A stretch of 12,558 nt of DNA from Coleofasciculaceae cyanobacterium bin_20 (GCA_037445115.1 JBBILC010000141.1:1-12558); one strand, 5' to 3'; positions 1 to 12,558 are shown, numbered from the stretch's first letter. Program-made: numbers and translations. The notes: generated from the sequence alone by a model not told the origin.

Positions 1-1
1 G

Positions 2-29
2 TCCCTCTCCCGTCCTGGGAGAGGGATTT
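2..29 (+). terminator. Perfect 10-bp GC-rich hairpin: tccctctccc (2-11) pairs with gggagaggga (17-26), loop gtcct, followed by ttta. Possible terminator of a gene left of the window, or part of the adjacent repeat element.
   Basis: Inverted repeat read directly from the sequence. The T-tract is only 3 nt, so the terminator call is weak. Confidence 0.25.
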
Positions 30-64
30 AGGGTGAGGTAGCAAAAGTGGGATGCACCCGATCT

Positions 65-181
65 GATGTGCTGGAAGGATCTTGGGGCAATCTAATTTGT
101 TAGAAATGGGCAGGTTTATCTGGATGGCTGGTTTGTGGTCCAGGTTTTGGGACAACCCACCCCTACATTAATGTTTTTGGG
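65..181. repeat. Left copy of a ~100-bp dispersed repeat element (ttggggcaatctaatttgttagaaatgggcaggtttatctggatggctggtttgtggtccaggttttgggacaacccacccctaca...). Direct repeat of 7323-7419.
   Basis: Manual alignment of 82-181 with 7323-7419 gives roughly 80% identity over ~100 bp in the same orientation. Shared blocks are ttggggcaa(t/c)ctaattt(g/t)ttagaaatgg.c.ggtttatc..gatggctggt.tgtggtccag.tttg...caaccc.cccctaca. Confidence 0.75.
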
Positions 182-489
182 CACTTCGAATAATTGCCTT
201 ATTGCGAAAATCAAGCACGCTATACCAGGCCATGCTCAATAAGCACCCCTATTTTTCGATGTGCCCTTATTATGACTAACACGATCGCGGTTAATTACAG
301 GGGTACTCACATCTCTGTCTCTTTTTCGGTGACCAGTAGTCAACCCCCTAATAAGTCCATGCCACAGCAACCTAACGGCAAAAGTGAGCGGCGGCAGATA
401 ACACCGAACACCCACAGATAACCCTTGTGCCGTCCACACCAACGCAATGTTAGCTGGCTCGAGACAAAGACATTGCTGACTCAGAAGCG

Positions 490-512
490 TAAAATAGTAG
501 GAGTAGCAAGGA
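490..512 (+). promoter_or_regulatory. Candidate -10 box TAAAAT (490-495) and Shine-Dalgarno-like aagga (508-512, 8 nt before the ATG at 521) for the antitoxin-toxin operon.
   Basis: Sequence motifs only. No convincing -35 at 17-bp spacing. Confidence 0.3.
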
Positions 513-520
513 ATTTAGCC

Positions 521-766
521 ATGAGCGTCGTTGTCCCTGATGAGATTTTAACCGCAACCCGCATGACTGAGGCTGAAATGCGTCAGGAAATTGCTGTCAT
601 GCTCTTTCAGCGCGAAAAGCTTACCCTTGCTCAAGCCAGTCGTTTTGCAGGAATACATCGTGTTGCCTTTCAACACCTACTCGCTAGTCGCTACATCCCA
701 GTACATTACGGAGTAGAGGATTTCGAGCAGGACATTCAAAATTTGCGGGAGATGGGCAGATTGTGA
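521..766 (+). CDS. UPF0175-family antitoxin, 81 aa (MSVVVPDEILTATRMTEAEMRQEIAVMLFQREKLTLAQASRFAGIHRVAFQHLLASRYIPVHYGVEDFEQDIQNLREMG). The ORF-track start at 425 is probably an upstream extension; the true start is likely the ATG at 521.
   Basis: Typical UPF0175 length and motif pattern (IPDEIL..., SLGKAAELAG-like helix-turn-helix segment, C-terminal EDLxxDLxxL). In-frame ATG at 521 with an RBS-like aagga. Sits immediately upstream of, and overlapping, a DUF3368 gene, which is the canonical pairing. Confidence 0.85.
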   Translation: MSVVVPDEILTATRMTEAEMRQEIAVMLFQREKLTLAQASRFAGIHRVAFQHLLASRYIPVHYGVEDFEQDIQNLREMGRL

Positions 767-1260
767 TTATTGTCAGTGACACATCATCTATCAACAACCT
801 TGCTGCAATCAATCACCTTCATCTTCTTAATCAACTCTATGGAACGGTTTTTATTCCCGAAGCCGTTTATCGAGAATTAACTGACCCAAATTTTCCTGTT
901 GCAGGGGCGACTGAAGTACAAACCTTTGACTGGATTCAAACTCGCGCTGTTAGCGATCGTACCCTTGTCGAAGTACTAAACAACGAACTTGATATTGGAG
1001 AGTCCGAGGCGATTGCCTTAGCCGTGGAGATTCAAGCTGATCAAGTTTTGATTGATGAACGTCGCGGTCGGCTAGTCGCAAGTAGGTTGAGTCTGCGCTA
1101 CATAGGTATCCTAGGAATTTTAGTCGAAGCAAAAAGTCAAGGCTTAATTGGTGGAGTAAAACCTTTATTGGATGCATTGCTTAATGAGGCTGGATTTTGG
1201 GTTGCAGAACCTTTGTACAACAGTGTTTTGCACCTTGTTAATGAGATCGACCTACCTTGA
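763..1260 (+). CDS. DUF3368-family PIN-like putative ribonuclease toxin, 165 aa. GTG start overlapping the antitoxin stop (GTGA at 763-766).
   Basis: The N-terminus MIIVSDTSSINNLAAINHLHLLNQLYGTVFIPEAVYREL matches the DUF3368/PIN-like pattern (hhhhDsSxLI.LakIgrLdLL..L...vhIP.aVy.E). Translational coupling to the UPF0175 gene. Confidence 0.85.
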   Translation: MIIVSDTSSINNLAAINHLHLLNQLYGTVFIPEAVYRELTDPNFPVAGATEVQTFDWIQTRAVSDRTLVEVLNNELDIGESEAIALAVEIQADQVLIDERRGRLVASRLSLRYIGILGILVEAKSQGLIGGVKPLLDALLNEAGFWVAEPLYNSVLHLVNEIDLP

Positions 1261-1509
1261 TCTTTTCTGGGTAACTGGTAAGCGTTTGGGATACTCCGCA
1301 GACAGGATAGAGCGAGATAACGACCAAGCTCACCGGACGCAGATAACTTTTGCCACTCAACCGATCACATTAAGGCGTTCCGGTGCAGCGACTTGTTATA
1401 CCGCTTACTCAGACCGAGTGTGCTCATAGATATTAGAGAGAAACTACTCAACCCTGGATTAGAGCATAGCTTCACGTACTTTAGAGTAGGTCTCATAGTT
1501 ATAAAACAG

Positions 1510-4500
1510 CTATACTGAAACGCTCGGAGAAATAGGCGTCACAAAGTCGTCTCGCATTTGATATGCAGCGGAAGAACCTGTCTCAACAAGCTGGTCGAGA
1601 ATATATAGAACCGCTTCTCGAACGCTACGATTTGATTTAAGTTGAAGCGGTTCCCCATAGACAAAGCGACGAAGCAAGACTTCAAGGTAGTAAGTAGTGG
1701 TCGAATCAGTCAGAGCTTGAGAAGCGTCTCCTGTCTTCAATCGCTCAGCTACCAATGTAAAACTTTTTGGAAGTGCTCTTTCGCCAACATGATAGAGAAA
1801 TCGGCAATAAGCTTTGAATGCAGCCGATGTCGCAGGAATACTTTTCACCAGGTTTTCTATGCGGTTCTCTTGATCCCTGAGACGTGGCCAGTATCGTACT
1901 TTATCTTTCCAGGATATTCCTAATAGTAGTTTACTCAGAAGTTGTGATGCGCTACTCGCCGTCGCATATCGTTCGTCTAACTTGCCATTCCATTTGGCAT
2001 TAGCAAAGTGGTCAGCAAAATTTTGCCAAATCTCCCAGAAGGGAGATTCACGTTCCAACTTATCTTCCTCGTAAATGAGTGCTTCAACAAACTCGCTAAC
2101 TTCCTTTGGATGGGTTTCGACAGATTGAAGGATAGGTTGATAAATTACAATCGCATGCTCAGCATCTAACTTAAGTGCAAATCTAGCGATCTGTTTTGTA
2201 AACCAAAGCTCGAACTCGAAGTCTCTATGATTATTACTATATTGGTCATGGTTATCTCTTTCCCAATCTTGAGTAAGGGCATAAGCTACTCGCTCATATA
2301 TCCTTGCCGCAGACTCGGATGTTGTCAGATAACTCAGTATCTGAAGAATGAAGCGTATCTGAAATCGCACATATCCTTGCAGGGGGTCCAAATTGCGTAA
2401 TTCATTTTCGGCGTCTATCTCTCCAGAAACTATGTCCTTTCTTATCTCTAATGCGGCCCTCTGAAACAACTCATAACCAGAGAGTTGTGCCTCATAGGGC
2501 ATTTCTTGTTGTTTTTCTCTAAGTTCCTCTGCAAGTCGTGCTTGTTTAGCTAAAGCGCCGACATAGCGCATAACAAAGTCAGGCTCAGTCTCTCCCAAGT
2601 AGTATCCCAACCCTGCTGCTGCATACTCTCTGATCTCAGTGACCGAATGGGTAAGGGCAGTAGCTGTTGCAGCAATCAGCACGTCACCAGACTTATCCAC
2701 GCCTAATTTTTGTATAGCGCACGGCAGGGTATAAGCTGCAGAACCGCCACCGCTGCCTCCAAGAACAGCATGGTGATCACTTCCGTCGTGCTTCTCAACT
2801 TCTGCGATTAACCTATCAACACACCAAGAACGATCATCGCTGTTCATTTCATCCCAATAATCTCTTATGCACACTGAAGCTAGCAATCCCGATCCACCTT
2901 GGCTTAAATCAAAAGGATTTTGCGTTTCTTCTCTGCTATCTTGCGCTTCTGAATCATGGAGCTTGGCAAGAGAGAGCATTTCTTGCCAGGACTGTGAATC
3001 ATTATCTAGATTTCTGTCCCAGGCGGCTTGTCCCCAAAGCCAAAGAGAGAGCACTTTTGTATGCTGAGCTTGCTGTTCAGAATTGCTATCGACTATTTCC
3101 TGTACATCCGGCTCTATTGCACCCAAGCTTATAGAGAAGTAGCGTCGCGTATCTTCTTCTGATCCCGATGGTGTTGTGTTGACTGTCACTTCCTCGCCTA
3201 ATTGGAAGCCTCGGACATCCATACGATGAAGCGCCAGCCTCCAGACAAGGTCTCCCTCTGATTGATCTTCCAGAGGTGGCAAATTTGCCCGGTGCTGATC
3301 AATGATTTGCCACACTTCCTCACATCTATCCCCAAGTTGAAGGTTGATCGCAAGGGATTCGAGATTACTCTTTCTATGGGGAAGAGCGCCCGACTCAATT
3401 CGCTCATGGTCATAAGCCTTACCCATAGGCTGCAAGGAGGGCATGAGCTTTTCGATGCTGAAATTATTCGCTTGATCATGAACCATTCGGCTACGGTCAA
3501 GGTCGATAATATCTTGAGTAGAAAGCAGTGCGAGTCCTGCACGACCACACTTGTCTGGATGTGCAATACAAACACTGGCGACAACTGCTGTCACTGCGAC
3601 ATTGTTGCTGTCTTGCAGCAACTTAAGAAGCCAGGACTCAAGATTTACATCCTCAAGCTTAGCGATTTCGAGGAGCCAATGTTCGAGCGCCATCAATGCA
3701 GACTGTAAAACATAAGGAGCTACAGAGGTACCTCGGTATATAGCGTAGAGACGCCCGTTAGCCCACTGTGAGATAGGTTGGCTTTCCTCTGGTATATTCA
3801 GTTCGACTTGCCATGCTGGTTCCAGCGGATCAAATGGCCACTTTTGTTCGCCGTACCAAGAGCAAGCATGGTTTATCAGAGTAGTGATAAAGTCAACACC
3901 GATACGGGGATGCGATCGCAAAAGAGCCCAGAATGGTCCCCGAATAGCACTTGCTGGAACTGAGAATTTGTGTGCTACGTGTTGCCGAATGCCGAAGTGT
4001 GAATCGATATTCAATGACCAGTGGTGGCGATACCCGTGCTCCCGGATTCTCTGAAGATCTTCGTCGGTAAGACAAAAGTAAGACATTGCAAGATCTATGA
4101 TCTCTTCTGGGAAGTCACGACAGGCAAAAGTTCCGCTGCTTTCGGTTAAAAGTAGATCTGCAAAGTCTTTAGCTACGTCATCGTGGTTATTTGCTGATTT
4201 GGCTCGACGCAAGATGTTTCTAAATGTATCAGCAGCAGAGTTTGGTATTTTGGCAAAAATTTCCAGCGCTCGCTTTCTCAAATCCCTTGAGTTATAGCCG
4301 TTTAGATCATCAAGAAGCCGAGCAATGATTTTGCCAGCATCCTTATATCCTTCTGGCTGAGGTTTCCAGTAAGCAACTTGTTGTGACCAGTCTTCTACCA
4401 ATCCCAGAACTATTCCGAAGTGCTCAGGTAGCAATTTTTCTAACTCTTCGCTGACGATTTTTAGTACCGGAGACCAAGCAGTTCCTGTGGGAACAAGAAG

Positions 4501-6639
4501 TTGTGATGTAAGCCCACGTTGATTAGGAAACAAGTCGTGAGCAGTTTTGCAGGCAACGCGAAGTAAATGAATAACACGGATCAACAGTTCTGCATCATGT
4601 GCAAGAAGTACAGCTCCGTTACGAAGCAGAAAGTCATTGGCGGAGGAAGACAGAAGTGTGCATATGATTGTGTCGTCCCGAAAATGGGCCGGAAGAGTGT
4701 CATCTTGGAAAGCAGATAAGATGAAGGTATCTGCACTCTCTAACTCAAGCCTTAGTGCCTCGCCAAGCCACTTTCTATAACCTCGCCGGAGGGCTGGATA
4801 TCCCCCGATATCCTCTGCAAATCCTGCTGCTTCGCCTTCATTAATAACAAATTGACCATGTAGCCAATGTATAGTCGCCCAGTCCTCCAAAACATCATGT
4901 GCAGGAGCAGCTAGTGACTGGCTGTCCTCGGAGAACGCCACCAAGCCATCCCTATGTAAGGCTTCCAACACATTGGCGTCAAAGTTATCACATCGAACAT
5001 ACGGACGAAGTTCTTTAGCCCTTTGTAAAGAAAGCTGCAAGAATACCTGTTCTCTTTTACGAGGCATACCATCAGCAGCATCTACATCAGAGCGGATTAT
5101 CTCACTCCAGCACCTATCTCTAAATTCCTTTTCATTATCCGGTAACTGTCCTTCCGACCAATTAATCCGAGCAGCTATATCTAAAAAATATGGTGAGCGA
5201 ATCAGCTTTTTGAGGTTTGGATTCTGAACCGCTACAGCAATCTGGGGAATTTCTTGCGCGACTTGGTCTAGCTCTTCATCTGTAAAAGGACGAACATCGA
5301 TCAGCTCATATTGGAGAGCGACCTGTTCTAGCAAAGATATTTTTACCGTATCTATGGAGTAGTCACGGCAAGTGAGTATTAAACGAAGATTTTGATCCTG
5401 TCTTACAAGCCGCAAGAGATCCATAAATGCTTTTCGCTCTGACGACTCAAGTAAGCGCTCTACACTCTCGATGAGAATGAACTTTCTCCCTTGAGCCGAT
5501 AATAGACTCAACAATCTGTTTGCTGTCAATGAATCTTGAATCGCTTGTAGAGACTGGTCTATATGGCTACTGGCAAATTCTTCAGCTCGAAAGACTAAAC
5601 AGAAACAGTTCTCTTTAATTTGCTCAACTACGTTTTTTGCTACTGCTGACTTTCCATAACCTGCTGGTCCATTGATGAGAGTGACTTGTGTCGCTTCTAG
5701 TGAATCAAGAATTTTAGTCTCTAGAATCTCTCGCCGAACTTTGATATGACTAGCAATAGTAGTATTGATGCCATCCAGTGTTACTAAACTGTGATCGAGA
5801 AGTTGTCTTAAAAGTCCGCCAGATCGAGGTGCTAAAGCAGAGTGACGTTGACGCAAAACCTCTGGTAGGTTGTTATGTCTATAGCTGCCTGCCGCTGGCA
5901 TTCCGTCAGACCCACCAACTATTTGAAGGAGATCGCTCCAAGTAGATTCTGCTGCTGCAAACGGATCAGGTTCGCTTGAGCAGAAAGCAAGCAGGTTTTT
6001 TGTCCACGCCTCTTGCTGAGCAGTTTTTGTAGTGAGGTCTAAGCTGATTACATGTAGAACACACAAGAAGCGCCAGAAGTCGTCAGCATTAATAGTTGTC
6101 GCAAAACTCTTCTCCAGAATACTTTGGATGGTTTCTGCTTGCTTCCGGGCGGTTTTAGAAAGAAGACCGTCTATTTTAATCCGCCGTTCGAAGTCTGAAC
6201 CATCAACAGAAGCCCGTGCAAAGTCTAATAAGCTGCCAAATTTGTCCAGCAATAAGTTGGTTCCTTGAAGCGTAATGAGAGCGAGTCGATCAGTCTCAGG
6301 GGAGAAGTTGGCCGAATTCTTGAAATCTTGCCAAAAATCAGCAAACGCCTTTTGACACGCATCGTTTTCACTGCTGATAGTGAAACTCCGTTTTACTTGT
6401 GCAGCAAGATGGCGATACTGGCCTCCACCTTTATTGCCTACAACCAATACATCGTCAGTCTGCCAGCCGAGATGCTCAGTCTGAAAATGCACTTCTTCGA
6501 CTTGGCAATCTTTTAAGATAGGGGGAATACCTCTAACAAGCAATAATGCAAGAAACTGTGCTCCAACGTGCTGCTCAAAAAACGTACCGCTTCCGCCTGT
6601 GGCAATCGGACTTGATACTGCTTGCTTTTTGCTACTCAT
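1510..6639 (-). CDS. Giant 1709-aa multidomain protein with three recognisable parts. Residues ~15-90 form an N-terminal Mrr-like PD-(D/E)xK nuclease domain: FE at 21-22, TDD at 61-63, QVK at 81-83. Residues ~310-560 form a central STAND-type P-loop NTPase: Walker A GPAGYGKS at 324-331, Walker B-like FILIESVE at 387-394, sensor-1-like LILTCR at 420-425. The C-terminal ~1150 aa are unassigned and look helical. Candidate Avs/AVAST-like antiphage NLR-like protein.
   Basis: Single uninterrupted ORF of 5130 nt. Nuclease and NTPase motifs were read from the translation; Walker A maps to nt 5647-5670. The nuclease-NTPase-sensor order matches Avs-type antiviral STAND proteins. It lies in a compositionally foreign block next to a TA pair and a recombinase remnant. 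Confidence 0.85.
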   Translation of the reverse strand: MSSKKQAVSSPIATGGSGTFFEQHVGAQFLALLLVRGIPPILKDCQVEEVHFQTEHLGWQTDDVLVVGNKGGGQYRHLAAQVKRSFTISSENDACQKAFADFWQDFKNSANFSPETDRLALITLQGTNLLLDKFGSLLDFARASVDGSDFERRIKIDGLLSKTARKQAETIQSILEKSFATTINADDFWRFLCVLHVISLDLTTKTAQQEAWTKNLLAFCSSEPDPFAAAESTWSDLLQIVGGSDGMPAAGSYRHNNLPEVLRQRHSALAPRSGGLLRQLLDHSLVTLDGINTTIASHIKVRREILETKILDSLEATQVTLINGPAGYGKSAVAKNVVEQIKENCFCLVFRAEEFASSHIDQSLQAIQDSLTANRLLSLLSAQGRKFILIESVERLLESSERKAFMDLLRLVRQDQNLRLILTCRDYSIDTVKISLLEQVALQYELIDVRPFTDEELDQVAQEIPQIAVAVQNPNLKKLIRSPYFLDIAARINWSEGQLPDNEKEFRDRCWSEIIRSDVDAADGMPRKREQVFLQLSLQRAKELRPYVRCDNFDANVLEALHRDGLVAFSEDSQSLAAPAHDVLEDWATIHWLHGQFVINEGEAAGFAEDIGGYPALRRGYRKWLGEALRLELESADTFILSAFQDDTLPAHFRDDTIICTLLSSSANDFLLRNGAVLLAHDAELLIRVIHLLRVACKTAHDLFPNQRGLTSQLLVPTGTAWSPVLKIVSEELEKLLPEHFGIVLGLVEDWSQQVAYWKPQPEGYKDAGKIIARLLDDLNGYNSRDLRKRALEIFAKIPNSAADTFRNILRRAKSANNHDDVAKDFADLLLTESSGTFACRDFPEEIIDLAMSYFCLTDEDLQRIREHGYRHHWSLNIDSHFGIRQHVAHKFSVPASAIRGPFWALLRSHPRIGVDFITTLINHACSWYGEQKWPFDPLEPAWQVELNIPEESQPISQWANGRLYAIYRGTSVAPYVLQSALMALEHWLLEIAKLEDVNLESWLLKLLQDSNNVAVTAVVASVCIAHPDKCGRAGLALLSTQDIIDLDRSRMVHDQANNFSIEKLMPSLQPMGKAYDHERIESGALPHRKSNLESLAINLQLGDRCEEVWQIIDQHRANLPPLEDQSEGDLVWRLALHRMDVRGFQLGEEVTVNTTPSGSEEDTRRYFSISLGAIEPDVQEIVDSNSEQQAQHTKVLSLWLWGQAAWDRNLDNDSQSWQEMLSLAKLHDSEAQDSREETQNPFDLSQGGSGLLASVCIRDYWDEMNSDDRSWCVDRLIAEVEKHDGSDHHAVLGGSGGGSAAYTLPCAIQKLGVDKSGDVLIAATATALTHSVTEIREYAAAGLGYYLGETEPDFVMRYVGALAKQARLAEELREKQQEMPYEAQLSGYELFQRAALEIRKDIVSGEIDAENELRNLDPLQGYVRFQIRFILQILSYLTTSESAARIYERVAYALTQDWERDNHDQYSNNHRDFEFELWFTKQIARFALKLDAEHAIVIYQPILQSVETHPKEVSEFVEALIYEEDKLERESPFWEIWQNFADHFANAKWNGKLDERYATASSASQLLSKLLLGISWKDKVRYWPRLRDQENRIENLVKSIPATSAAFKAYCRFLYHVGERALPKSFTLVAERLKTGDASQALTDSTTTYYLEVLLRRFVYGEPLQLKSNRSVREAVLYILDQLVETGSSAAYQMRDDFVTPISPSVSV

Positions 6640-6850
6640 CAGCGATTTCTATCTAGAGCGTATGGTGTTTGATGTGTTTTGTCTAAGAGCTTCAACTATT
6701 TTAAGCAACCAAGCTGCACCGAGTGATCTTGATGAACTGGTGTGACTCAACAGGTAGGCGGTATAACTATGTATTCAACGTCAGATCTGATGGATAAGCC
6801 CGGATATCAGGATCTTATCATGCAGATCCGCGTGATAATACCTGGTTCTG

Positions 6851-6993
6851 GGGTGTTATTTATCAAAGTTAATGTTTTAAGTCCGAGATTTCAGGGTGTT
6901 ATCCGTCACTTTTGACGTTTAAGTTGGGGAAATTGGGGTGTTATCCGTCACTTTTAAATGATAACACCCGGATTCAGGGTGTTATCCGTCATT
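6851..6993. repeat. Phased array of GGGTGTTAT(C) repeats. Direct copies at 6851-6864 (degenerate: gggtgttatttatc), 6894-6913, 6936-6955 and 6977-6993, spaced 41-43 bp. One inverted copy gataacaccc at 6960-6969 forms a 9-bp inverted repeat with the 6936 copy (GGTGTTATC-14 bp-GATAACACC). Candidate recombinase-binding attI-like site or operator array.
   Basis: Exact 17-20 bp matches read in the sequence (gggtgttatccgtcactttt twice, gggtgttatccgtcatt once). Spacing is about 4 helical turns. Located immediately upstream of the IntI-like fragment and upstream of, and divergent from, the giant minus-strand gene. Confidence 0.8.
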
Positions 6994-6998
6994 GCCTT

Positions 6999-7292
6999 GT
7001 GCTGGACAGTCAGCCACCGCCACCGCCACCCCGCCTGCTGGATCAGGTCAGGCAAGCCATTCGCCTTAAGCACTTCAGCTTAAAGACCAAAAAGTCCTAC
7101 GTTTACTACATCCGCGACTTCATCCTGTTTCACGGCAAACGCCATCCTAAGGACATGGGGGCAGATGAGATCTGGGCCTACCTGGCGCATCTAGCTGTTG
7201 AACGCTCCGTTGCCGCCTCCATGCAAACAGTCGCCCTGAGTGCCTTGCTGTTTCTTTACCGTCAAGTCTTGCAGGGTGATCCCCCCTTTTGT
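6999..7292 (+). pseudogene. Truncated tyrosine recombinase. Only the N-terminal SAM-like/core-binding domain of an integron-integrase (IntI)-like protein is present. Homology stops at ~7290, where the dispersed repeat begins, and the catalytic domain is absent.
   Basis: From memory, the translation LLDQVRQAIRLKHFSLKTKKSYVYYIRDFILFHGKRHPKDMGADEIWAYLAHLAVERSVAASMQTVALSALLFLYRQVLQGD aligns without gaps to the IntI1 N-terminus [82 protein letters not shown]. A proline-rich stretch preceding LDQ is present in both. The likely start is the in-frame GTG at 6999. The ORF-track ATG at 6912 would run through the repeat array. Downstream of 7290 the ORF continues in frame through the repeat element, which I take to be coincidental. 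Confidence 0.7.
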
Positions 7293-7419
7293 TATCGAGA
7301 TAGCTGGTCTGCGGTCCAGATTTTGGGGCAACCTAATTTTTTAGAAATGGACGGGTTTATCGAGATGGCTGGTCTGTGGTCCAGATTTTGCTGCAACCCG
7401 CCCCTACAACAATTTTGGG
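7293..7419. repeat. Right copy of the ~100-bp dispersed repeat (7323-7419), preceded by an internal tandem partial duplication: 7293-7332 atcgagatagctggtctgcggtccagattttggggcaacc is nearly identical to 7359-7398 atcgagatggctggtctgtggtccagattttgctgcaacc.
   Basis: Manual alignment with 65-181 and internal self-alignment. It sits exactly at the boundary between the AT-rich island and HIP1-rich DNA, and abuts the 3' end of the 7440-7922 gene. Confidence 0.75.
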
Positions 7420-7439
7420 TATTCCTGTCGTCGGATGCT

Positions 7440-7922
7440 TTAGAGTTTATAACCAATTTGGCGGAGGAGCGATCGCCGGGATTCAATATCAGCGGGAGCC
7501 TCAACACCCTGCGGTGAGGCTCCATCAATCACACCTAAAATGCCGCGTCCTTGGTTGGTCTCAGCAATAATTACCTGGACGGGATTGGCCGTTGCGCAGT
7601 AGATAGAGCAAACCTCTGGGCACTGTTTAATGCCATTGAGAAAGTTGATGGGATAGGCATCCTTGAGCAGAATAATAAAGCTGTGACCGGCCCCGATCGC
7701 TTGGGCATTGGCGATCGCGGCTGCCTGCAACCCCTCATCATTCCCCACCGCGCGAATTAAACAGGGACCCGATGCCTCGCAAAAGGCTAAACCAAACTTA
7801 ACCTGGGAAGAAGTCCCTACCAAAACTTCATAAAGATCTTCAACAGTTTTAATAAAATGGCTTTGGCCCAGGATGAGATTACTTCCCTCTGGCACGGTGA
7901 GGTCAACGGTGTGAAGTTCCAT
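7440..7922 (-). CDS. 160-aa conserved protein, probably of the adenosine-specific kinase family (PF04008/DUF355-like; typical of cyanobacteria and archaea).
   Basis: Clean 160-aa ORF with native-like composition, including HIP1 sites. The length and motifs (GQSHFIKTVEDL, IGAGHSF, CATANPVQVI, GRGILGV) fit my recollection of that family, which I could not verify. Confidence 0.55.
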   Translation of the reverse strand: MELHTVDLTVPEGSNLILGQSHFIKTVEDLYEVLVGTSSQVKFGLAFCEASGPCLIRAVGNDEGLQAAAIANAQAIGAGHSFIILLKDAYPINFLNGIKQCPEVCSIYCATANPVQVIIAETNQGRGILGVIDGASPQGVEAPADIESRRSLLRQIGYKL

Positions 7923-8033
7923 TGCGAGGTCCTTAATATTATTGGATATTTTATATCAGCATTGTATCCCGGCTTGCTGCTGGACTTTCACCCCCATCTG
8001 CTGGACATAAAAACTGCTTCCTTTGACGCCTCC

Positions 8034-8093
8034 TTGGCCCAGATTTGATCCAGCTTTAATCCAGTTTTGGCCCAGATTTTGGTCCAGATTACA
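8034..8093. repeat. Five short tandem units of ~11 bp (ttggcccagatttga / tccagctttaa / tccagttttgg / cccagattttgg / tccagattaca) in the divergent intergenic region between the 7440-7922 (-) and 8174-10435 (+) genes. They share the core GGTCCAGATTTTGG with the large dispersed repeat.
   Basis: Read directly. The unit consensus is YCCAGNTTTNR. Confidence 0.6.
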
Positions 8094-8173
8094 GTGATCT
8101 TAAATCTGAATAAAGGGCTAGTCCAGCAATGCTAGAGTGGGGGCACATCCTATAACTTGTAAGGCAACGCCTT

Positions 8174-10435
8174 ATGAAACTGATCCAGAGTCCTTTCCGG
8201 TTGACTTCGCTACGGCAATCGCGGAAGGCTGCTCGTGGTTTAGCATCTGTAGCGGTGTCCATGCTGGCAACCGGGGCGATCGCGGCAACGGCTTCTCTGC
8301 CCTCAGCGTTGGCAACCCCAGACCCTACCCCAACCTTGATCCCAACCCAACCCCAAACGCCACTGCGATCGGGTCAGCCAACCCCATCTACCCAACCGAT
8401 CCAACTGGCGCAACCGGCCCCCAGCCCGGTTATTTACCAGATGGGGGTTGGGGATTTTCTCGGTCCACTCTTTGTCACGGGCATCATCATTGTCGGGGGA
8501 GCTATTTTCTTCTCTTCGATTACCGGCCTGGTGATTATTAGTGAACAGGAAGTCGGGATTATCATCAAAAAGTGGGGGGGGCGCCTTACCCCCGGACATT
8601 TGGTTGCCCTACACGGTGAAGCCGGTATCCAGGCCGATACCCTCGTCCCTGGCTGGCATTGGGGCTATTTCCCCTGGCAATATACGGTGCAAAAGCAGCC
8701 CGTGATTGTGGTACCCCAAGGAGAGATCGCGTTAATTGTGGCGAATGATGGGGTGGCGATTCCACCGGAGCGGATTCTGGGGAAAGTCGTCCCCTGTGAC
8801 AACTTTCAAGATGCCCGCAAGTTTCTCTCCAATGGCGGTGAAAAGGGGCGGCAATTGGACTTTCTCACCGCAGGCACCTACCGCATTAACACAGCCCTTT
8901 TCCAGGTAATCACCTCTGGAAACACGGGAAAGCATGGGGTGAGTGCCGATAAACTGCGGGTCTATTCAGTTCAGTCCGATAAGGTGGGCATTGTCACCAC
9001 CCTCGATGGCCAGCCGATCGAGGCCGGGGAAATTGCCGGTCCAACCGTGCCGGGACATAACAATTTCCAGAATGGCGAAAAGTTTATCCGGGCCAATGGT
9101 CGCCGAGGGTTACAGGAGCAAATCCTGCTGTCCGGTTCCTGGAACTTGAATCCCTGGTTTGCGCAGGTGGAGCAGGTCCCGATGACGGAAATTCCGATCG
9201 GCTATGTGGGCGTTGTGATCTCCTTTGTGGGGAAAGCCCATGAAGATGTCAGTGGTGCGTCCTTTACCCACGGCGATTTGGTCGAGCCAGGGCATAAGGG
9301 CGTTTGGACGGAACCGCTCTATCCCGGTAAGCATCCGATTAACATCCGGGTGATGAAGGTGGAATTGGTGCCCACGACCAATATTGTGCTGAACTGGTCT
9401 GCCCGTACCGAGCGCCATAATTACGATCAAAAACTGGAATCCTTGCAGGTGCGATCGCGGGATGGGTTTGCCTTTGATCTGGAAATTGCCCAGATTATCC
9501 ATGTTGGGGCGTTAGATGCACCTAAGGTGATTTCCCGTGTGGGGTCAATGCAAAATCTGGTGGATCATGTATTAGAACCCACGATCGGTAACTATTTCCG
9601 CAACTCGGCCCAGGATTATACGGTGCTCGACTTTTTGAGTGCTCGGAGTGAGCGGCAAGCGGAAGCGGCTGAATATATTAAAGCCGCCCTGCGTAGCTAC
9701 GATGTGCAAGCGATCGACACGCTGATTGGTGAGATTCAACCTCCCGCCGAACTCATGAAAACCCAGACCGAGCGGAAGATTGCCGAAGAACAGCGCAAGA
9801 CGTTTGAAATGCAACAACAGGCCCAAACCCAGCGACAACAGTTGGTGCGGGAAACGGCCCTCGCCGACATCCAACAGGAGATGGTGAAGTCGGAACAGAG
9901 TGTCAAAATCGCGGCATTGCAAGCCCAAGCCCAGATCAAACAATCGGAAGGACAAGCCGAATCGATCAAATTGCGGGCTGTGGCCGATGCTGAATCCATT
10001 CGGGCTACGGGTCGGGCAAGGGCGGAAAGCTATCATGCTGGGGTACAGGCCCTCGGTGAAAAGGGCTATACCGCAATGCAACTGATGCAGATTATTGGCG
10101 ATCATCAGGTGCGGCTGATTCCCGATGTGTTGGTGGGCAGTAGTAGCAGTGGCAGTCTGGTGGATGGCCTACTCTCGATGATTCTTTGGAACCAGGCGGG
10201 GAAAACACCGGGTAATGGGGGGACACCGCTACCCTCACCGCTACCGTCGCCATCCGACAAGCAACCCTTCAATGGCGTCGCATCGCCGCCGCCCCCTCCT
10301 GCTGCGCCACAGTCGGCCTCACTACCGGCCCCACGACCTGTACCGCCACCGGCCCCACTGCCTGCGCCCCCGCCTGTGCCCCCGCGATCGGTCACTACGG
10401 GTACTGCGTCCCCCGATGACCCCTTTACGTCCTGA
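8174..10435 (+). CDS. SPFH/band-7 flotillin-like membrane protein, 753 aa. The N-terminal signal-like segment is followed by a Pro/Thr-rich linker and a hydrophobic hairpin/TM (FLGPLFVTGIIIVGGAIFFSSITGLVII). Next come the SPFH domain, a Gln/Ala/Glu-rich coiled-coil EA-repeat region, and a C-terminal proline-rich tail.
   Basis: EQEVGIIIKKWGG...LVPGWHW...QPVIVVP resembles the flotillin N-terminal SPFH entry motif. The long AEEQRK...QAQAQIKQSEGQAESIKLRAVADAESIRA coiled-coil is typical of bacterial FloT-like proteins. RBS-like aagg before the ATG. HIP1 sites lie within. Confidence 0.75.
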   Translation: MKLIQSPFRLTSLRQSRKAARGLASVAVSMLATGAIAATASLPSALATPDPTPTLIPTQPQTPLRSGQPTPSTQPIQLAQPAPSPVIYQMGVGDFLGPLFVTGIIIVGGAIFFSSITGLVIISEQEVGIIIKKWGGRLTPGHLVALHGEAGIQADTLVPGWHWGYFPWQYTVQKQPVIVVPQGEIALIVANDGVAIPPERILGKVVPCDNFQDARKFLSNGGEKGRQLDFLTAGTYRINTALFQVITSGNTGKHGVSADKLRVYSVQSDKVGIVTTLDGQPIEAGEIAGPTVPGHNNFQNGEKFIRANGRRGLQEQILLSGSWNLNPWFAQVEQVPMTEIPIGYVGVVISFVGKAHEDVSGASFTHGDLVEPGHKGVWTEPLYPGKHPINIRVMKVELVPTTNIVLNWSARTERHNYDQKLESLQVRSRDGFAFDLEIAQIIHVGALDAPKVISRVGSMQNLVDHVLEPTIGNYFRNSAQDYTVLDFLSARSERQAEAAEYIKAALRSYDVQAIDTLIGEIQPPAELMKTQTERKIAEEQRKTFEMQQQAQTQRQQLVRETALADIQQEMVKSEQSVKIAALQAQAQIKQSEGQAESIKLRAVADAESIRATGRARAESYHAGVQALGEKGYTAMQLMQIIGDHQVRLIPDVLVGSSSSGSLVDGLLSMILWNQAGKTPGNGGTPLPSPLPSPSDKQPFNGVASPPPPPAAPQSASLPAPRPVPPPAPLPAPPPVPPRSVTTGTASPDDPFTS

Positions 10436-10475
10436 TGGCGAGGAGATGACCCTTTTACGTCCTGATGGCGAGGAG
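10416..10475. repeat. Perfect-but-one 30-bp tandem duplication (atgacccctttacgtcctgatggcgaggag / atgacccttttacgtcctgatggcgaggag) straddling the stop codon (TGA 10433-10435) of the flotillin-like gene.
   Basis: Read directly; a single mismatch between units. Confidence 0.85.
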
Positions 10476-10511
10476 GCGTCGATTTAGATAGGTGAGATAT
10501 GCTACACCGTT

Positions 10512-10552
10512 AGGAGTCGGAATGCTTGTCCCATTTTGACTCCTCTTTTTTT
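10512..10552 (+). terminator. Candidate rho-independent terminator: stem aggagtc (10512-10518) pairs with gactcct (10538-10544), followed by c + T7 (10545-10552). Downstream of the flotillin-like gene.
   Basis: Inverted repeat plus a 7-T run. The loop is long (19 nt) and could have additional internal pairing. Confidence 0.45.
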
Positions 10553-10603
10553 GTAAGGCTAGGCTTAGCGCGAAAAGTGGGATGATCAAATCCTATGTGA
10601 ACC

Positions 10604-10640
10604 TTGACGATCGCAGGTCTTGCGAATAGTTTGCGAATAT
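10604..10640 (+). promoter_or_regulatory. Candidate sigma70-type promoter for the kinase gene. The -35 is TTGACG (10604-10609), the spacer is 17 bp, and the -10 is TAGTTT (10627-10632). A direct repeat ttgcgaata x2 (10620-10628, 10631-10639) lies over it and could be an operator.
   Basis: Motif spacing only. The leader to the ATG at 10648 would be very short. Confidence 0.3.
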
Positions 10641-10647
10641 CCTATCG

Positions 10648-12519
10648 ATGTCCTATTGCTTTAATCCTGACTGTCCGCAGCCCCAGAATCCCGATGGAAT
10701 TACCCACTGTCAGCAGTGTGGCTGGGCATTGCAATTGCAGGATCGCTATCAAGCGATTAGGTTACTGGGTCAGGGCGGATTTGGGCGCACCTTGCTGGCG
10801 ATCGCGGCTCCAAATGCCACCGATCGCGAACCGTCCGCCTGTGTGATTAAGCAGTTTTTACCCCAGCCCCTCCGTGCGAATCACCAAGACAGGGCACGCA
10901 CCCTGTTTCACCAGGAAGCCCAACGCTTGGCAGAATTAGGCCAGCATCCCCAAATTCCTGATTTTTTCGATTTTTTCCAGGCGGGTGAACAGCTTTATTT
11001 AGTTCAAGAATATATTGCGGGGGTTACCTTAGCGGAGCAACTCGCGACCCAAGGGGTGTTCACAGAAGCCCAAATTTGGCAAGTATTGACTGACCTGTTA
11101 CCCGTCCTCAAGTTTATCCACGATCGCCAGGTGATCCATCGCGATATTAAACCCGAAAATATCATTCGCCCGGTTGCAAACGAGTTAGCCAACGAGTTAG
11201 GCAATAACGCCCCCCTGGTCCTGGTTGATTTTGGCTCTGCCAAGGTGGTTACCCCGATCGCCCAGTTACAAACGGGAACCACGATCGGCAGTGCTGAATA
11301 CGTTGCCCCCGAACAGGCGCGGGGAAAGGCGGTCTTTGCCAGTGATCTCTACAGTTTGGGGGTGACCTGTATTCACCTGCTCACGGGATTGTCTCCCTTT
11401 GATTTGGTAGATAGTGGGCATAATACGTGGGTTTGGCAACAATTTTTGACCACGCCCGTTAGCCCAGAACTGGGTCAAATGCTCGATCGCCTTATTCACC
11501 CAGCCCTAGACCAGCGATTCCCATCCGCAGATGCTGTGATGCAGGCCATGTCGGGATTTGCTCTGATCAATCCCAAGGACGCTCGTAGCCAGAAGTCCCG
11601 CGATCGTGCCTTATCTCAGGCATTGCCGATCAACCTTTCCTGCCCTTGTGAATCTATCCTCCGTGGACATACGGCAGCAGTCAATACCGTAGCAGTCAAT
11701 ACCGTTGCGATGGGTTCTGAGGAGCCATTAATCGTGAGTGGGGGGCAGGATAAAGTGATGCGATTTTGGAACCTAAAAACAGGACAGCCCCTCCAATATT
11801 TCTCTTTGGAGACCCCCATTTTGTCGGTAGCCTTTAGTGCAGATGGGAAACGTTTGGCCGCAGCCGGTCAAGATAACAGGGTGCGCGTATGGTTAGTAGA
11901 AACGCTCCAAGCGTCTTTAACATTAGCTGAACATACCCAATTAGCAGGACATACCCAGGCCGTAAAAGCGATCGCCTTTCATCCGCAATATCCCATTTTA
12001 GCCAGTGGTAGCCGTGATAAAACGATTCGGATTTGGCAGGTTCAGACGAGGGAACTGGTCGCAACCCTGACCCAGCATCGGTTAGCCGTCAATACCCTCG
12101 CCTTTAGCCCGGATGGGGCTTGGTTGGCCAGTGGGGGCAGCGATCACCGGGTTTGTCTGTGGCGCGTTCATGGCGAGGCGGGTAAACCCAGGCTCACCCA
12201 CCACAAAACGTTGACCGATCATGTCGATAGCGTGTTGGCCGTTGCTTTTAGCCCCGATAGCCAAACGTTGGCAACGGGGGGAGACGATCGCACGATTAAA
12301 CTCTGGGATGTGGCGCAGGGTCACCTTCAGCAAACCCTATCGGCCCACTCCTGGTCGGTTTCTGCCCTCAGTTTTAGTCCCATTACAAGCTGTTCATCTG
12401 CCTCTACAGAAAAGCCTTTTTTAATCAGTGGCGGGTGGGATGGGTTACTGAAATTGTGGCCGATCGCGCATACGGAGATACAACCGGCGGCTTTGAGCCT
12501 ATCGGGCCAGAAGTGTTGA
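10648..12519 (+). CDS. Ser/Thr protein kinase, 623 aa, with three parts. An N-terminal zinc-ribbon has the pattern CFNPDC...HCQQCG. The Hanks-type kinase domain carries GQGGFG, VIKQF, HRDIKPENII, DFGSAK and YVAPE. The C-terminal WD40 beta-propeller has repeats ending RFWN, RVWL, IRIWQ, VCLWR, IKLWD and LKLWP.
   Basis: All canonical kinase subdomain motifs are present in order. Multiple WD repeats with GH...WD-like spacing. This architecture is common among cyanobacterial Ser/Thr kinases. Confidence 0.9.
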   Translation: MSYCFNPDCPQPQNPDGITHCQQCGWALQLQDRYQAIRLLGQGGFGRTLLAIAAPNATDREPSACVIKQFLPQPLRANHQDRARTLFHQEAQRLAELGQHPQIPDFFDFFQAGEQLYLVQEYIAGVTLAEQLATQGVFTEAQIWQVLTDLLPVLKFIHDRQVIHRDIKPENIIRPVANELANELGNNAPLVLVDFGSAKVVTPIAQLQTGTTIGSAEYVAPEQARGKAVFASDLYSLGVTCIHLLTGLSPFDLVDSGHNTWVWQQFLTTPVSPELGQMLDRLIHPALDQRFPSADAVMQAMSGFALINPKDARSQKSRDRALSQALPINLSCPCESILRGHTAAVNTVAVNTVAMGSEEPLIVSGGQDKVMRFWNLKTGQPLQYFSLETPILSVAFSADGKRLAAAGQDNRVRVWLVETLQASLTLAEHTQLAGHTQAVKAIAFHPQYPILASGSRDKTIRIWQVQTRELVATLTQHRLAVNTLAFSPDGAWLASGGSDHRVCLWRVHGEAGKPRLTHHKTLTDHVDSVLAVAFSPDSQTLATGGDDRTIKLWDVAQGHLQQTLSAHSWSVSALSFSPITSCSSASTEKPFLISGGWDGLLKLWPIAHTEIQPAALSLSGQKC

Positions 12520-12558
12520 ATCTTAAGATTTTATTTTCTAAAAATAGACACACTAATC

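Follow-up and report, generated by a model that had tools for sequence, protein, structure and literature searches.

A candidate antiviral STAND NTPase of the Avs4 family with a predicted Cap4-like nuclease effector

Gao et al. reportedly catalogued diverse N-terminal effectors across Avs1–4 in 2022. Avs1–4 are described as binding terminase or portal directly (PMC13581612), with Avs4 sensing portal and Avs3 sensing terminase. The effector of EcAvs4 is Mrr and that of SeAvs3 is Cap4, each nuclease becoming active inside a tetramer (10.64898/2026.08.25.746987). For Cap4-like nucleases in general, the switch is likely induced dimerisation (PMC12198126). Avs4 effectors are exchangeable, including by a PD-DExK nuclease swap that keeps portal-dependent toxicity, and Streptomyces (actinobacterial) Avs4 homologues respond to portals even after such a swap (PMC12642450).

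The protein described here combines a sensor and NTPase like those of Avs4 with an effector like that of Avs3 or Avs7. It belongs to the Avs4 family as a divergent member whose effector has been exchanged for a Cap4-like one, and it is not a new kind of system, because exchange of effectors is familiar among Avs proteins and the protein is already strongly matched by the PADLOC model of Avs4. EcAvs4 (E. coli AVAST type 4; PDB 8DGF, bound to the phage PhiV-1 portal) is collinear with it through the NTPase and the whole helical sensor, and each of the two is a single-gene system whose nuclease effector lies at the N-terminus. They differ in that effector, a Cap4-like domain of ~245 aa plus a linker here and an Mrr-like domain of ~160–210 aa in EcAvs4, and in their hosts, a probable cyanobacterium (MAG) here and an enterobacterium for EcAvs4. 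The two N-termini do not align, and the first 158–165 positions of the Avs4 profiles are unmatched. Our protein thus lacks the Mrr-like effector of EcAvs4, a feature that is not strictly defining given the modularity of Avs effectors.

Systems with related nucleases differ in what controls them. The sensors of SeAvs3 (Salmonella AVAST type 3; PDB 8DGC) and SeAvs7 are TPR domains unrelated to the sensor described here and bind terminase and major capsid protein, respectively. Compared with our N-terminal domain, these proteins show no detectable sequence similarity, with 14% identity in a structural alignment and no HMM match. Cap4 (CBASS), HamA (Hachiman), LmuA (Lamassu) and HerA-DUF4297 answer to SAVED/cyclic-nucleotide, helicase, SMC-like and HerA partners, respectively. 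Unlike all four, the nuclease examined here is fused to a STAND sensor, and it misses the Pfam DUF4297/Cap4 profile.

The gene is complete and lies at 1510..6639 on the minus strand of the window, by which we mean the whole 12,558-nt stretch of DNA that was analysed. It encodes 1709 aa from an ATG start, as given by the ORF list, its translation and the profile matches. Homologues back this start, their N-termini aligning from residue 1, and the identical gene is called on contig CAZKYT010000148.1 of assembly GCA_964556945.1. The first-pass annotation of this DNA had reported the 1709-aa frame and a set of motifs, all of which we found where it had placed them: GGSGTFFEQH (residues 15–24), TDDVLVV (61–67), AAQVKRS (79–85), INGPAGYGKS (322–331), KFILIESVE (386–394), ILTCR (421–425) and DHHAVLGGSGGGSAAY (1288–1303). 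All 31 full-length homologues compared share seven residues without exception (D62, D63, G327, K330, S331, T423 and R425), and conservation of E22, Q81 and K83 in this set reaches at least 90%. The quoted nuclease and NTPase motifs are not chance occurrences, because they are conserved across these 31 proteins. The layout that the annotation had drawn from them, a nuclease followed by a P-loop NTPase and a large helical sensor in a single-gene Avs-type antiphage STAND protein, is supported by the results below.

The Avs4-type sensor and the STAND NTPase

Family profiles place the NTPase and sensor in Avs4. PADLOC, a check that the first-pass annotation had proposed for this gene, returns a strong match to its Avs4 model (PDLC02169) at E=1.5e-182, aligning residues 276–1699 with positions 165–1569 of 1570 (89% of the model), and its next-best defence model reaches E=0.003. 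NCBIfam NF041815 ("AVAST type 4 anti-phage nuclease Avs4") matches residues 274–1698 with 662.3 bits (E=1.3e-198). That score lies below the equivalog cut-off of 1500 bits, which marks proteins functionally equal to the characterised Mrr-type Avs4. By these profiles, the protein represents a divergent Avs4 subfamily and not an equivalog.

Pairwise searches lead to the same family. Among PDB sequences, 8DGF is the sole solved structure matched by phmmer (E=5.4e-90), and tblastn against plasmids retrieved avs4-annotated genes from E. coli and Salmonella. BLASTP against one of these proteins, the E. coli plasmid Avs4 WP_171995315 (locus L087), gives 24% identity over 1486 columns (E=3e-96), and the alignment is collinear between residues 302–1700 of our protein and 212–1587 of the E. 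coli one.

The predicted fold of the sensor is also that of EcAvs4. We modelled residues 601–1709 with AlphaFold2 from 31 homologues (mean pLDDT 85.3) and searched the PDB with Foldseek, which recovered 8dgf_B at E=4.5e-34 with a query-normalised TM of 0.68 over 1147 columns. The next-best matches are generic helical solenoids (E=1.5e-6, TMq 0.21), and every match other than 8DGF has a TMq of 0.23 or less. The first-pass annotation had described a sensor that matched nothing it recognised and had proposed comparing a structure prediction of it with Avs1–4 sensors; PADLOC, NCBIfam, 8DGF, BLASTP and the modelled fold all give Avs4, and a novel sensor is not borne out. By sequence and by predicted fold, the all-helical C-terminal domain (1513..4839, minus strand, residues 601–1709) is the Avs4 sensor, and residues ~275–1700 are homologous to Avs4.

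The STAND NTPase module (4840..5739, minus strand, residues ~301–600) is supported by its nSTAND1 match and by motif conservation. Pfam nSTAND1 scores 29.8 bits, over its cut-off of 27.1, and nSTAND3, NACHT and AAA_16 lie just under their cut-offs. The Walker A motif (5647–5670, G324–S331, including K330), the Walker B motif (5464–5481, F387–S392, including E391) and the sensor-1-like arginine R425 (5365–5367), all on the minus strand, are intact, as expected of the P-loop NTPase of Avs4. At the Walker B position, E391 is E or D among the 31 homologues, and its counterpart in the alignment with EcAvs4 is the Walker B aspartate, the D in VIVVDS. The earlier recognition of a STAND/NACHT-like ATPase holds, with nSTAND1 above its cut-off and all three elements conserved.

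Two further candidates within the sensor were set aside. A Phage_lysozyme match at residues 1561–1644 is spurious, scoring 18.2 bits where the cut-off is 22.3 and falling inside the helical sensor. A Gly/Ser-rich segment, DHHAVLGGSGGGSAAY, had been singled out as odd and placed near nt 2728–2775. It is present at residues 1288–1303, and its coordinates are refined to 2731..2778 on the minus strand, but it is not conserved: homologues read approximately R-GxxxPDRxAAY at this position, with conservation limited to the AAY end. Relative to them, our protein carries a 4-residue deletion together with Gly/Ser substitutions. We dropped the segment as a functional motif; in the homologue alignment it is a variable surface loop in a form specific to this lineage.

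The predicted Cap4-like nuclease

The N-terminal domain (5905..6597, minus strand, residues ~15–245) is predicted to be a PD-(D/E)xK nuclease. Its AlphaFold2 model is confident (pLDDT 88.3, pTM 0.85) and consists of 18 disordered residues at the start, an alpha-beta-beta-beta-alpha-beta core at residues ~20–125 and a helical bundle that extends to ~245. This is a restriction-endonuclease fold, as the first-pass annotation had supposed. The candidate active-site residues (6391..6576, minus strand) take up canonical positions in the model: E22 (6574–6576) in helix 1, D62 and D63 (6451–6456) just before strand 2, and Q81 (6397–6399) and K83 (6391–6393) in a Q81-x-K83 that ends strand 3. Catalytic competence is probable, judging from the conservation of these residues, with a predicted site that reads Q-x-K and not (D/E)-x-K.

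Fold comparison points to Cap4 as the nearest relative. The restriction-endonuclease core and its helical extension superpose on Cap4, SeAvs3, HamA and LmuA, with ~190–200 residues of the model aligned to such Cap4-type domains at 10–16% sequence identity. From predicted structure at this level of identity, the domain appears Cap4-like rather than Mrr-like. It had earlier been called an Mrr nuclease on the strength of its E...D...QxK residues; the residues and the restriction-endonuclease fold stand, and the Mrr subtype gives way to a Cap4-like one. Neither the profile searches nor the best structural match leads to Mrr-type nucleases.

Sequence profiles see little of this domain. Pfam and NCBIfam scans of residues 1–284 came back empty, and at E≤10 Pfam found no relevant family, DUF4297/Cap4 included, in this domain or in 23 homologues. 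The profile of the N-domain family had zero matches among PDB sequences, and PADLOC on the N-terminal 284 residues gave a single marginal match to the candidate PDC-M54A (E=0.012). The profile check that the first-pass annotation had recommended thus found no Mrr_cat (PF04471), a result that carries no weight because our positive control, the N-terminus of E. coli Avs4, likewise goes without a Pfam match to Mrr_cat. The argument for the subtype rests on the fold comparison.

The model also suggests a place for the ~220 residues that had been left without a function between nuclease and NTPase. Most of them would be the helical half of the nuclease domain (residues ~129–242), because the superposition with Cap4-type domains takes in ~190–200 residues and the model stays compact, as one unit, to ~245. 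The remainder is a linker of ~55 residues (5740..5904, minus strand, residues ~246–300) with lower model confidence: pLDDT falls to 54–74 in parts of 241–284, and the Avs4 profiles start at 274–276.

Distribution, proposed mechanism and alternatives

Relatives of the whole protein are numerous. Scoring 8000 candidates gave 864 proteins at E≤1e-10, with identities of 40–62% and coverage of 99–100%, from hosts that include Nitrosomonas, Alloalcanivorax, Thioalkalivibrio, Ectothiorhodospira and Thiodiazotropha. Where named, they are called "hypothetical protein", "ATP-binding protein", "AAA family ATPase" or "nSTAND1 domain-containing NTPase". The nuclease domain alone makes up a family that is well conserved: it has 93 close matches, and a 24-sequence profile of it recovers 2427 clusters at E≤0.001 from a 50%-identity representative library, 534 of them at E≤1e-30. 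It occurs in at least 115 species-representative genomes, and more than 15 bacterial phyla are represented among the 80 loci that we kept, along with one archaeal Methanothrix MAG.

The architecture is both fixed and common, because about 62 of the 80 loci share an ORF of 1683–1708 aa from the start of the match, the Walker A motif and an HDxxEDW sensor motif. At one locus, from a member of the Gemmataceae (L052), the N-domain is joined to a 2221-aa TPR-containing protein without Walker A or HDxxEDW, and this fusion indicates that the nuclease is a movable module. Alloalcanivorax xenomutans is also the source of AxAvs14; kinship between AxAvs14 and the homologue from the same species (P0288) is unlikely because of the Avs4-specific sensor match. 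The clade that combines a Cap4-like nuclease with Avs4 runs to hundreds of clusters in many phyla, falls below the NF041815 equivalog cut-off and carries a nuclease family absent from Pfam and NCBIfam.

No partner gene is conserved in the window and in three relatives examined. The flanks of these three hold IS elements and integrases, HipA/Fic toxins, and restriction-modification and helicase genes, and no neighbour is common to the window and the three relatives examined. The gene accordingly behaves like a single-gene system.

We put at roughly 80% the probability that the gene encodes a stand-alone antiviral STAND NTPase of the Avs4 family with a Cap4-like PD-(D/E)xK DNA endonuclease as its effector. 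Its parts, their conserved residues, the sensor fold and the solitary position on an island are those described in this work; for the trigger, oligomer state, DNA substrate and abortive outcome we infer the steps from EcAvs4 and SeAvs3, whose structures are solved. Before infection, the protein would be an auto-inhibited monomer. Upon infection by a tailed phage, the helical sensor would bind a conserved phage protein, in all probability the portal, as a freshly synthesised monomer, and the ATP-bound NTPase module would oligomerise, most probably to a tetramer. The Cap4-like nuclease domains would thereby be paired as dimers, switching on non-specific cleavage of double-stranded DNA. Replication of the phage would be aborted, and the cell would probably be lost with it.

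The main alternative concerns the trigger. Portal specificity and functional equivalence to EcAvs4 are not guaranteed, because identity to EcAvs4 is 24% and 662 bits is far under the 1500-bit cut-off. With the same Avs4-like architecture and the same mode of action, the clade might sense a phage protein other than the portal, or a perturbation of the host, and so form a functionally distinct sister family. The low identity and the sub-threshold NCBIfam score speak for this, as do residues 1282–1471, which phmmer leaves unaligned to 8DGF, and reports of related Avs sensors that respond to more than one trigger or to differing ones (PMC11564622, PMC13581612). It nevertheless seems unlikely to us, because the sensor is collinear with that of EcAvs4 over its full length, the fold match is specific to 8DGF, and the Streptomyces homologues remain portal-responsive even after an effector swap (PMC12642450). 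One form of the idea, about equally unlikely, is that the clade with Cap4-like effectors is a functionally separate branch of Avs4 whose sensor has possibly been retuned to a non-portal trigger or to portals that EcAvs4 misses, for example those of cyanophages.

Much less probable is the reading with which the first-pass annotation had begun, in which an Mrr_cat nuclease, a separate ~220-residue domain and a novel sensor make up an undescribed Avs-like family. Its E...D...QxK residues are compatible with many PD-(D/E)xK families, Mrr among them, and the N-terminal region is without a Pfam match; the structural and profile results argue against it, and the family can hardly be called undescribed when the architecture is this widespread and the PADLOC Avs4 model is covered to 89%. 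Least probable of all is a decaying or non-functional relic of a horizontally acquired island, or else a STAND protein that serves regulation and not defence: a truncated integrase adjoins the gene in a low-GC island and many metagenomic homologues are fragmentary, but the frame is intact at family length (1683–1708 aa at about 62 of the 80 species-genome loci), all catalytic and nucleotide-binding residues are kept, and fusion to a nuclease effector characterises STAND proteins of defence and not regulators.

On the favoured reading, an Avs4-family sensor with a Cap4-like nuclease, this gene and hundreds of relatives now filed as "hypothetical", "ATP-binding protein" or "nSTAND1 NTPase" become annotatable as such. 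They also bring to light a sizeable nuclease sequence family so far unmodelled by Pfam and NCBIfam, and the locus adds a probable-cyanobacterial case of an Avs4 system on a mobile island. The understanding of how Avs proteins work is unchanged, modular exchange of N-terminal effectors being already established.

Genomic context

Base composition and repeat content fit a horizontally acquired island within a cyanobacterial genome. GC content is 0.42–0.49 in positions 1–7000 and 0.49–0.62 beyond. The cyanobacterial HIP1 octamer, GCGATCGC, occurs at 7 sites in the window where 0.19 are expected, 1 of them in 1–7000 and 6 in 7469–12558. It is from these HIP1 sites that we take the host to be a probable cyanobacterium. 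The first-pass annotation had described an AT-rich, HIP1-poor block next to a toxin-antitoxin pair and a recombinase remnant, and GC content, HIP1 counts and Pfam all agree with it. Its placing of the gene in a defence island is likewise supported, as a mobile or defence island.

Scans for control and attachment signals yielded little. Promoter and terminator sites around the gene are no more frequent than in shuffled sequence. Scans of the window for tRNAs and Rfam families found none; an attachment site was hence not located.

Recognisable genes flank the Avs4 gene on both sides. Outside it, as context, a UPF0175 antitoxin-like gene (521–766, plus strand; Pfam PF03683, E=1.3e-23) and a DUF3368 PIN-like gene (763–1260, plus strand; Pfam PF11848, E=4.8e-15) form a toxin-antitoxin pair (521..1260). 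On the other side lies a tyrosine-recombinase remnant (6912..7517, plus strand), matched by Pfam PF13495 (Phage_int_SAM_4) at E=1.2e-25 over residues 42–121, which has the N-terminal SAM-like domain alone, without a catalytic domain. This remnant marks the island edge, and HIP1 sites resume at 7469. Beyond it on the right flank are genes for an adenosine-specific kinase, an SPFH/Band 7 protein and a Ser/Thr kinase-WD40 protein.

Detection and distribution of the nuclease module

Profile libraries overlook the effector domains of both the Avs4 type member and the window protein, a 1709-aa member of the Avs4 family. Pfam did not find Mrr_cat even in the N-terminus of the bona fide Avs4 encoded on an E. 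coli plasmid (WP_171995315; L087:868–1617, + strand), from which this blind spot follows.

The predicted Cap4-like nuclease module also occurs beyond the Avs4 architecture. A 2221-aa ORF of Gemmataceae bacterium CJuql4 (locus L052, LR594586.1, 6001–12663, + strand) starts with the same N-terminal Cap4-like domain as the window protein and has TPR hits as well. This ORF lacks both a Walker A at the expected place and the Avs4 sensor motif HDxxEDW, so the module is not confined to Avs4 proteins.

Homologues in Alloalcanivorax and an archaeal bin

Alloalcanivorax xenomutans encodes a full-length homologue of the window protein with 46% identity (P0288, locus L005, JBPCIA010000014.1). The 'AxAvs14' of a 2026 Nature survey comes from the same species (PMC13581612). 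Kinship between P0288 and AxAvs14 is unlikely, because the sensor match is Avs4-specific. In a Methanothrix sp. MAG (locus L024, JAABPZ010000085.1), an N-domain match at 4114–4956 precedes a Walker A motif and the sensor motif of Avs4, in an ORF that is incomplete and extends past the contig end. This archaeal occurrence suggests either transfer of the clade across domains or a binning artefact.

Neighbouring genes and the island edge

Facing the Avs4 gene convergently at its 3' end lies a typical type II toxin-antitoxin pair (521–1260, + strand), comprising an antitoxin-like UPF0175 gene and a PIN-like DUF3368 gene with a 4-base overlap. Within the Avs4 protein itself, a Phage_lysozyme match (1565–1816, – strand; residues 1561–1644) is most likely spurious, scoring 18.2 bits against a Pfam cut-off of 22.3 and falling inside the helical sensor.

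The low-GC island probably ends at about 7.3–7.45 kb, since sites for HIP1, the cyanobacterial octamer, start again at 7469. A tyrosine-recombinase ORF (6912–7517, + strand) retains only a Phage_int_SAM_4 domain (residues 42–121), and its tail runs into the 3' end of an adenosine-specific kinase gene (7440–7922, – strand). Further right, in the HIP1-rich, higher-GC portion, are genes for a 753-aa SPFH/Band 7 protein with long Pro-rich tails at both termini (8174–10435, + strand) and a Ser/Thr protein kinase–WD40 repeat fusion (10648–12519, + strand); both look like resident cyanobacterial genes.
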